Below are positions 55,237-56,619 of a stretch of 60,364 nt of DNA, one piece after another (the stretch's first letter is position 1; each line of letters begins with the position of its first letter). The notes beneath the pieces were generated by a model. The model was not told the origin of the DNA. It saw nothing but the letters and a program-made list of their open reading frames with translations, and made no database searches. This DNA comes from Candidatus Saccharimonadota bacterium (GTDB lineage Bacteria > Patescibacteriota > Saccharimonadia > Saccharimonadales > Saccharimonadaceae), in the NCBI GenBank assembly GCA_017964025.1, contig JAGCST010000003.1, forward strand, positions 1 through 60,364, given 5' to 3'. The translations under genes were made by a program, and so were the position numbers.

Positions 55237-56619
55237 ATGTTTGTAGACAAAGCTAGAGTCAGTCTAAAAGCCGGTAAAGGCGGCAATGGTGCCGTCTCTT
55301 TTCGCCATGAAATTTACATTCCTAAAGGTGGTCCAGATGGTGGCGATGGTGGTAAAGGCGGCGACATTATTTTCCGTGCCGATAAAGATACAAATACATT
55401 AATAGATTTTCGTTTTACTCCGATTCTCGAAGCTGAAAATGGTAAGAACGGTTCCGGACAACGCTCTGCCGGCCGCTCTGGTAAAGATCTTATAATCGAA
55501 GTCCCTATCGGCACTTGTGTTTATAAAGTCAACCAAGAAAGAATCTTTTTAGCTGATTTAGTAGAAGATGGCCAAGAGGCTATAATTGCTAAAGGTGGGG
55601 ATGGTGGCTTTGGTAACGCTCATTTCAAATCGAGCACCCGTCAAACTCCAATTATTGCCGAAGTTGGCGAACCGGGTGAAGAATTTGAGGCCGAATTAGA
55701 GCTTAAATCCATGGCTGACGTTGGTTTGGTCGGATTACCTAACGCTGGCAAATCTACCTTTTTATCTGTAGTCTCTAATGCTAAACCCGAAATTGCTGAC
55801 TATCCTTTTACTACCATTACACCAAACCTCGGTGTTGCTACGATTGACGAAAAAGACCTTCTAATTGCTGATATTCCAGGCCTTATTGAGGGCGCTTCTG
55901 AGGGTAAAGGCCTAGGTCACGATTTTCTTCGTCACGTCGATCGCACCGCAGTATTATTACATTTAGTCGATATCTACAACGACGATGCTGGCGAAGCTTA
56001 TCAGATTATTAGGAACGAACTTGATAAATATTCCGACTTAAAAGATCGTCCCGAAATCGTCGCATTAACTAAATGCGAAGGCGTTGACGAAGATATTATC
56101 AAGATGCAAATGTCTTCCATCCTCGCTAAGAACCCCAATGCTCAAATTTTCCCCATTTCCGCCCAAGCTCACCAAGGTCTCACAGAAGTACTTAGAGAAT
56201 TAAAGCAAGTTTACGATGTAAGCATAGAGCAAGCCAAGACGAAGTTTGTGCAGGATGAATCTTTCGAGACCGTCCGCGACAACGGGAGCGATACAGCGAG
56301 CGAGCCCCGTAACGACGGGCGCGAGCGAAGCGGGTCGAGGAAGATTCATTTAAACGACGTTCCGACCATTTCCTTAAGCAAAGATGCCCTAAAAGACACC
56401 TGGAAAGTCGAAAAGAAGGACGATAAATTTGTAGTTACTGGTGAAAAAATCGAAAAATTTGCTCGCCGTACTGATTTAAATAACTACGCTTCTGTTAACC
56501 GTCTTCGCGACATCATGAAAAAGATGGGTATTCGCGCTGAACTTACTACTCAAGGCGCCAAACCTGATTCCATTATCAGTATTGCTGGCAAAGAATTTAC
56601 CCTTGTCGAAGACTGGTAA
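55237..56619 (+). CDS. obg: GTPase ObgE/CgtA
   Basis: [35 protein letters not shown]-terminal OCT domain. Confidence 0.97.
56255..56349. repeat. GC-rich palindromic element inside obg (in frame)
   Basis: Terminal arms ATGAATCTTTC-GA-GACC / GGTC-GA-GGAAGATTCAT enclosing small hairpins, including GCGAAGC. Confidence 0.7.

Follow-up and report, generated by a model that had tools for sequence, protein, structure and literature searches.

Likely non-autonomous mobile DNA: short palindromic elements in flexible protein loops of gut Saccharibacteria

The obg gene of a Candidatus Saccharimonadota bacterium raises two questions: what is the GC-rich palindrome that lies within its reading frame, and how did it come to be there? 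The window, by which we mean the whole stretch of 60,364 nucleotides that was analysed (contig JAGCST010000003.1, assembly GCA_017964025.1), contains an obg frame in which positions 56255-56349 reach 61% GC, compared with 43% in the rest of obg and 37.5% in the genome (705 kb); this value is attained by 0.07% of the 95-bp windows in the whole stretch. An earlier note on this DNA had singled out the island as GC-rich, and it does stand far above both gene and genome, although the description of obg as an AT-rich gene was somewhat overstated: the gene is richer in AT than the island, but has 43% GC. The element, 97 bp long and in frame, falls where the note had placed its peptide, in the linker between the G domain (residues 2-325; NCBIfam TIGR02729) and the OCT domain (residues 390-455; TIGR03595), with the insert at residues 340-371. 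An AlphaFold model (25-sequence alignment, pTM 0.52) gives a pLDDT below 50 for residues 337-381, which cover the insert, and the linker segment that holds it is predicted to be disordered. We infer from the open frame that the insert is translated. Two other frames of the window, both on the minus strand, lie close by: a 172-aa frame (54578-55096) of no obvious family, divergent from obg, and a 542-aa frame (57693-59321), which we take to be a RuvX/YqgF domain fused to an MltG/YceG domain.

Table 1. Features of obg and of the palindromic element within it (positions in the window)
Feature	Positions	Strand	Remarks
obg (ObgE/CgtA GTPase, 460 aa), host gene	55237..56619	+	frame intact
Probable scar of a second, lost element at the residue-100 hot spot	55525..55560	+	interpretation
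Whole palindromic element, GA-rich strand on +	56254..56350	+	encodes Obg residues ~340-372; covariance model
Closing stem, locus-specific, 5' arm	56254..56265	+	pairs with 56339-56350; compensatory changes relative to the orthologous copy in L066
Tandem GA, then 5' side of the inner 4-bp stem	56266..56271	+	
Three-way junction, short arm: 2 bp, tandem GA, 1 bp, loop of 4 nt	56276..56289	+	
Long arm: alternation of GC pairs and tandem GA mismatches, with a single bulged C	56296..56331	+	
Inner stem, 3' side, and second tandem GA	56333..56338	+	
Closing stem, locus-specific, 3' arm	56339..56350	+	pairs with 56254-56265

The imperfect inverted repeats with tandem GA/GA mismatches that had been described at the edges of the island are confirmed: the two arms of the closing stem pair with each other and are followed inwards by tandem GA/GA and a 4-bp stem (Table 1). 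The long arm, whose apex (56306-56319) is a 5-bp apical stem with a 4-nt loop, is the most conserved part of the structure, with 98% of alignment cells paired and two-sided changes at six of nine pairs; the short arm is its weakest-supported helix (81-89% of cells paired). Two smaller structures proposed earlier have to be redrawn. The CCG/CGG hairpin is better read as the short arm, GC-GA-C(AACG)G-GA-GC, and the GCGAAGC at 56325-56331, once taken for a free mini-hairpin, forms the long arm's 3' strand and is found in just 28 of 123 copies. The closing stem of the obg copy is shorter than that of the family and has no clear bulge, and the copy, which is itself in the training set, scores 108.5 bits over the full covariance model. 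Folded as RNA, its plus strand beats shuffled sequences (z -3.5; 0 of 200) and its minus strand does not (z -0.7); under DNA parameters the fold is not significantly better than shuffles (z -1.6; 17 of 200). The strong evidence for the fold is comparative.

A close relative, L066, carries the same element at the same Obg site (81% identity over 600 coding bases). The two copies differ at 13 of 97 bases, eight of which fall within 16 stem pairs; three of the stem changes are two-sided and compensatory, two turn a wobble into a Watson-Crick pair, and none of the 16 pairs is broken. The 36-base long arm is identical in the two, and 14 of 50 positions differ in the 3' flank. On the evidence of these sequences, the obg copy is maintained as DNA.

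The genome contains five copies, all of them in frames of 230 or more residues: in obg, at the N-terminus of gyrA, antisense in recX, in a UPF0020-type methyltransferase gene and at the N-terminus of a MiaA-like gene, which from its sequence we take to be miaA. BLAST and nhmmer found three copies beyond obg, a scan for GC islands added a fourth, and the covariance model returned the same five; the expected further genomic copies therefore exist, four in number and all in genes. Relatives of the element are found across the genus, with a DNA match in 70 of 100 genomes and none in the other 30. Within the family, the covariance (structural) model detects them in 22 of 120 genomes, belonging to 17 other genera, and finds none in 98; beyond the family it matches one of 150 genomes of the phylum, and that one is of this genus. 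Outside the genus, the exact 14-mer of the element occurs at control level (five single matches in 298 genomes). The exact core pattern was found in at least 125 stretches and, among the 80 listed, 76 are from Saccharibacteria or Ca. Nanosyncoccus and four from a 'bacterium'. The sequencing runs that contain this obg are mostly gut metagenomes, several of them bovine or sheep. Across the family the element measures about 100-125 bp, and its copy number per genome ranges from 0 to more than 15. What the earlier note had proposed in general terms, a multi-copy palindrome that resembles the Rickettsia palindromic elements (RPEs) and adds peptide in frame, is therefore upheld by five genomic copies and by relatives across the genus.

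Among 166 distinct copies, a set enriched for obg, 148 lie in stop-free frames of 150 or more residues (108 sense, 40 antisense). Copies use all six reading frames, and so the peptide is not what is conserved. In five genomes, 56 of 71 copies are in genes and 15 outside, in a set drawn from 40 stretches chosen around pattern matches; with a coding density of 90%, this means that coding DNA is tolerated, not preferred, and a preference for it was rejected. Eleven copies in short frames or between genes adjoin housekeeping genes. Some genes hold two or three copies in different loops (L159, L175, L203, L179, L208 and others). In tRNA synthetase genes and in gatA, mnmA and lepA-like genes (names read from sequence), the same sites are reused by different subfamilies.

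Comparison of the copies also defines what the family shares. In a MAFFT alignment of 35 copies, 82.7% of cells are paired, compared with 65.8% after shuffling and 31-44% in slid controls, and both sides change at 22 of 29 pairs, the structure having been taken from the obg copy and the aligned sequences being kin; as copies and genomes are related throughout, p-values in this work are overstated. The common core is GA-rich and Y-shaped, and is often near-identical between unrelated genes while the arms differ. The closing stem, of about 22 bp, is private to each locus: its median is 22 Watson-Crick pairs, and in 118 of 123 copies it scores above the 99th percentile reached by mismatched flanks. 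Compared between loci, the arms are 43% alike (36% when shuffled) and carry a weak family consensus. At stem positions 8-17 of 112 coding copies, a one-base bulge is found on the 5' side only in 67, on the 3' side only in 6, on both in 10 and on neither in 29, and the first 5' bulge is a purine in 61 of 72 cases. Of the two strands, the GA-rich one folds more stably in 118 of 123 copies as DNA and in 120 as RNA. With G-T and A-C scored symmetrically, the ratio of G-T to A-C on the GA-rich strand is 32:8 in antisense copies and 46:34 in sense copies, the latter not significant. The excess of G-T in antisense copies makes a fold at the mRNA level unlikely, since that would give the reverse there. 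We infer that selection acts on the fold of the GA-rich strand. Direct repeats of 5-8 nt at the stem ends, as a target duplication would leave, occur at chance level (108 copies, with approximate ends).

On our reading, to which we give a probability of roughly 0.6, these copies are palindromes of about 100-125 bp that have settled in flexible loops of housekeeping proteins in gut Saccharibacteria, and their spread is likely that of non-autonomous mobile DNA. In-frame palindromes in conserved genes are already documented as RPE-1 to RPE-10 and as the WPE of Wolbachia (PMC10969869, PMC2229807, PMC3767692), and in the accessible parts of these papers the likeness is close: palindromes of 100-150 bp at many loci, in frame in conserved housekeeping genes whose orthologues lack them, in a reduced, host-dependent bacterium, with intergenic copies too, with loci reused by different subfamilies and without a known transposase. 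However, RPEs share a terminal repeat of about 12 bp where the terminal stem is private to each locus here; orientation follows strand skew here, a point we did not meet for RPEs in those parts; and the phylum is different. No NCBIfam family matched the insert peptide at E 0.1, in a scan of window positions 56200-56400 translated in the obg frame. The element works like RPEs but is not a member of them. A search of the open-access literature by titles and the opening lines of abstracts found no description of such repeats in Saccharibacteria.

Gain and loss can be followed best in Obg, which has two insertion hot spots, a beta-turn near residue 100 and the linker between the G and OCT domains. 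Among 104 sequences, 101 are readable at the residue-100 site, of which 63 are empty (9 residues), 16 intermediate and 22 filled, and the filled alleles carry several core types. Filled and empty alleles are sisters in three cases (SH-aLRT 98-99; 96 proteins, inserts removed); the tree was built quickly and leaves 42 of its 93 inner branches open, so that the pattern may reflect repeated losses as readily as repeated gains. No clean junction was read, because the closest empty and filled pairs are only 80-87% identical. Within the species, contigs from 8 of 24 sequencing runs contained no empty allele and no joint that cleanly skips the element; contigs drop rare variants, so this says nothing about excision. 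The residue-100 site of this genome (Table 1) exceeds the 9-residue empty allele by three residues, and its last residues match those of the 3' arm in filled alleles of the closest relatives (L016, L066 and L072), which suggests that it is probably the scar of a lost element. A degraded remnant of an element also lies elsewhere in this genome (G000 C22:8777-8853), at a site that is filled in the argS-like genes of relatives.

The host's conserved Ala-Asp-Leu codons reappear, as their inverted complement, in the 5' arm of several filled alleles, and this arm changes with the synonymous codons used, the Ala third-position pair being kept in 11 of 13 alleles, once as a wobble (by eye). Across 116 copies with an emptier homologue, the palindrome has a median of 42 residues, 9 of them in each arm, and the empty allele about 11; the outer arms therefore overlap host codons. 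The idea that the arms are a pure inverted target duplication fits these figures only in part, given an empty allele of about 11 residues against arms of 9 + 9 and the weak arm consensus. At the methyltransferase site, this genome and L192 have a near-identical core in opposite orientations, an in-place flip. No co-conversion tract was evident in the flanks of the Obg site, where identity dips beside the site and does not rise towards other filled alleles. The Obg linkers of ten relatives (L003, L007, L009, L010, L011, L017, L018, L022, L023 and L072) hold other long, GC-rich hairpin inserts, which have no sequence match to the family of the obg element; judged by sequence, several palindrome families seem to share permissive sites in this genus.

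Several of these features would also be expected if the insertions were old and now owed their spread, exchange and inversion to nothing but host recombination and template switching, with gene conversion homogenizing the cores and the arms being perfected against each other, and with no dedicated mobilizer. No transposase was found, different core subfamilies occupy the same sites in different species, inversion occurs in place between the arms, and host codons are often mirrored in one arm, synonymous changes included. Furthermore, for RPE-4 as well as for RPE-6 and RPE-7, the consulted part of one paper reads same-site patterns with different groups as common origin (PMC3767692). Copying between arms should, however, erase the bulge, yet it is found on the 5' side only in 67 coding copies and on the 3' side only in 6, and host recombination leaves unexplained both the first arrival at many unrelated genes and the wide range of copy numbers per genome. 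We therefore regard it as an unlikely account of the family.

The orientation of the copies offers further evidence. In five genomes, the GA-rich strand of the element lies on the C-rich strand, as defined by third-position skew, in 61 of 71 copies (16/18, 14/18, 10/11, 16/19 and 5/5 by genome). This polarity holds in 31 of 31 copies when the gene is itself on the C-rich strand, in 19 of 27 when it is on the other strand and in 11 of 13 outside genes; orientation thus goes with the strand skew whichever way the gene runs. The polarity is also seen in 23 of 25 copies in other genera and in four of the five copies of this genome. In G466, of another genus, the skew turns from negative to positive at dnaA (more weakly in G409), so the G-rich strand is leading there, and 9 of 12 copies in G466 obey the polarity on both sides of the switch points (by eye). 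Within this genus the skew keeps one sign across dnaA in four genomes (G075:C3, G084:C3, G007:C2 and G004:C2), so the assignment of the G-rich strand as leading is carried over from G466; the sign is also constant over sampled stretches of a 554-kb contig. The replication origin may lie away from dnaA, or the replichores may be very unequal. The ribosomal protein cluster of this genome is on the G-rich strand, which agrees with this assignment. Provided that the G-rich strand is leading, the GA-rich strand, which folds better, would seem to be placed on the leading-strand template. The suggestion that a single-stranded fold matters, and is tied to replication, thus gains support from strand polarity.

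In these respects the family resembles the attC sites of sedentary chromosomal integrons, for which the available text describes a conserved structure with little conservation of stem sequence, an extrahelical base on one arm, and a folding strand preferentially on the leading-strand template, a polarity that limits folding and excision (PMC5371416). The differences, on the same partial text, are that our elements are dispersed as single copies in genes rather than in a cassette array and that they conserve the apex rather than the ends. If they spread as mobile DNA, a presumed enzyme, for which the search gave no candidate, would act at the replication fork on the element folded as a single strand. 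Host codons would supply part of the closing stem, whose pairing would be preserved by compensatory change or by copying from arm to arm. Copies whose folding strand is on the leading-strand template would be likely to persist since reduced folding during replication would spare them from deletion, as is described for the attC sites of chromosomal integrons, so that the polarity would arise at least partly from retention. The insert peptide would be tolerated, not selected.

Polarity to strand skew might also reflect a strand-polar DNA signal that has been domesticated: a hairpin or cruciform to which a replication, restart or nucleoid protein of the host binds, selected by the host and placed where proteins tolerate it. 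Compensatory change in place agrees with such a signal, as does the finding that, where a site is shared, divergence is 4-20% between cores of one subfamily and 42-85% at flanking fourfold sites, in a comparison of 73 listed pairs of which most are between different subfamilies. Yet a signal selected by the host sits badly with the lack of a match in 30 of 100 genomes of the genus and in 98 of 120 of the family, with copies that decay to scars and with about one copy in seven that points the other way, and we think it improbable.

If the family consists of mobile elements, what moves them? The earlier note had looked to an HUH enzyme, or a RAYT, acting on single-stranded DNA. A search for Y1_Tnp lent this no support, and the argument from a GCGAAGC mini-hairpin fails. 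Y1_Tnp is encoded in 7 of 101 genomes of the genus and not in this one, no element lies near any of the eight loci, and the copies show no REPtron-like clustering around a single gene. IS200/IS605 elements, moved by a Y1 HUH TnpA, are similar in their hairpin ends, in the lack of target duplication and in an orientation bias to replication (PMC5027513), but the active strand of IS608 lies on the lagging-strand template according to the part of that paper seen, whereas the better-folding strand appears on the leading-strand template here (if the G-rich strand leads and the GA-rich strand is the active one), the opposite polarity, and no TnpA is linked. An HUH enzyme specifically is one candidate mobilizer among several, and a doubtful one. 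REPs and REPINs with a RAYT are likewise small, non-autonomous, multi-copy hairpins, some of them inside genes, and CGTC repeats share with our family the lack of a dedicated transposase (PMC3733652); as far as that text was available, however, their hairpins of 20-40 bp contrast with a three-way junction of about 100-125 bp that is mostly coding and has no linked RAYT. The terminal tetranucleotide GTAG/CGTC is absent from the base frequencies of our flanks. Bacterial MITEs (Correia, ERIC, RUP and YPAL) are also short and non-autonomous, with terminal inverted repeats; some give in-frame fusions, and YPAL targets sites at or near dyad symmetry (PMC2229807, PMC10969869). Set against the sections of these papers that were seen, our family differs in having no shared terminal repeat, no TA ends and no target-site duplication, and in being GC-rich. 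The family is thus not one of MITEs, nor does it form a REPtron.

The other DNA-acting families searched for, namely GIY-YIG, DUF559, tyrosine recombinases, IS110 and DDE_Tnp_1, fared no better. GIY-YIG domains occur in 98 of 101 genomes of the genus, nearly all in frames of 410-600 aa, which from their size we take to be UvrC, and show no stand-alone pattern. DUF559 occurs in 7 of 101 genomes, six times inside proteins of more than 1000 aa, again with no stand-alone pattern. Five genomes examined for recombinases hold one or two tyrosine recombinases each, and no IS110 or DDE_Tnp_1. Viral contigs gave no match to the long pattern and three to the short pattern, all without the rest of the element, and collections of phages and plasmids gave only chance matches of 26-36 bases. 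A bolder version of our reading, which we offer tentatively and consider doubtful as a whole, is that the family would be transposase-free mobile DNA, recognized by the shape of its folded single strand, inserting or surviving with a fixed polarity on the nascent lagging strand, and copying neighbouring host codons, inverted, into its own closing stem. Were that true, essential proteins would repeatedly be given, have reshuffled and be relieved of loops of 30-40 residues.

The spread might instead go through an RNA intermediate, copied in trans by a reverse transcriptase of DGR or retron type and primed at the replication fork. The GA-rich strand does fold well as RNA, more stably than its complement in nearly all copies (see above), and RVT_1 genes are present in 67 of 101 genomes of the genus. 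We took the reverse transcriptases inspected (L458-L465, L299:12678-14936 and L310:12310-14259) to be mostly DGR-like, with an AAC-rich template region, and a few to be retron-like. However, this genome (91% complete) has no RVT_1 match; the presence of a reverse transcriptase is not associated with that of the element (50/70 versus 17/30; Fisher p 0.17); no element lies in any of the ten reverse transcriptase loci scanned; and Rfam gave no match (eight loci scanned to E 5, with five sub-threshold chance hits). An RNA intermediate is accordingly a rather remote prospect. As a separate observation, this genome, though without a reverse transcriptase match, has genes that end in similar target-like motifs (G000 C15:9636-9838 and C37:12372-12554). 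Finally, an ordinary linker conserved as protein, with a palindrome by chance, might be suspected of a segment that is long and variable in all relatives and predicted to be disordered, but the same DNA recurs in genes that are unrelated, in all six frames and on either strand, as well as in intergenic stretches; together with compensatory base changes in the stem, this refutes the reading and with it the case of a single copy conserved as protein alone.

In summary, the phenomenon is already known in kind from RPEs, and the way in which coding palindromes of that type move has been a standing question since 2000. For one and the same set of sites, this family provides filled, empty, scarred and inverted alleles from hundreds of species. 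It also offers three handles that we did not meet for RPEs in the available sections of those papers, namely polarity to the replication strand, a closing stem that is private to its locus yet conserves a bulge, and compensatory changes within a resident copy, and these make the mechanism testable by comparison and by orientation assays. Epibiont genomes of 0.7 Mb tolerate repeated insertions of 30-40 residues in core proteins, among them Obg, GyrA and tRNA synthetases, and this matters for annotation, for marker-gene phylogeny and for the origin of new protein loops.
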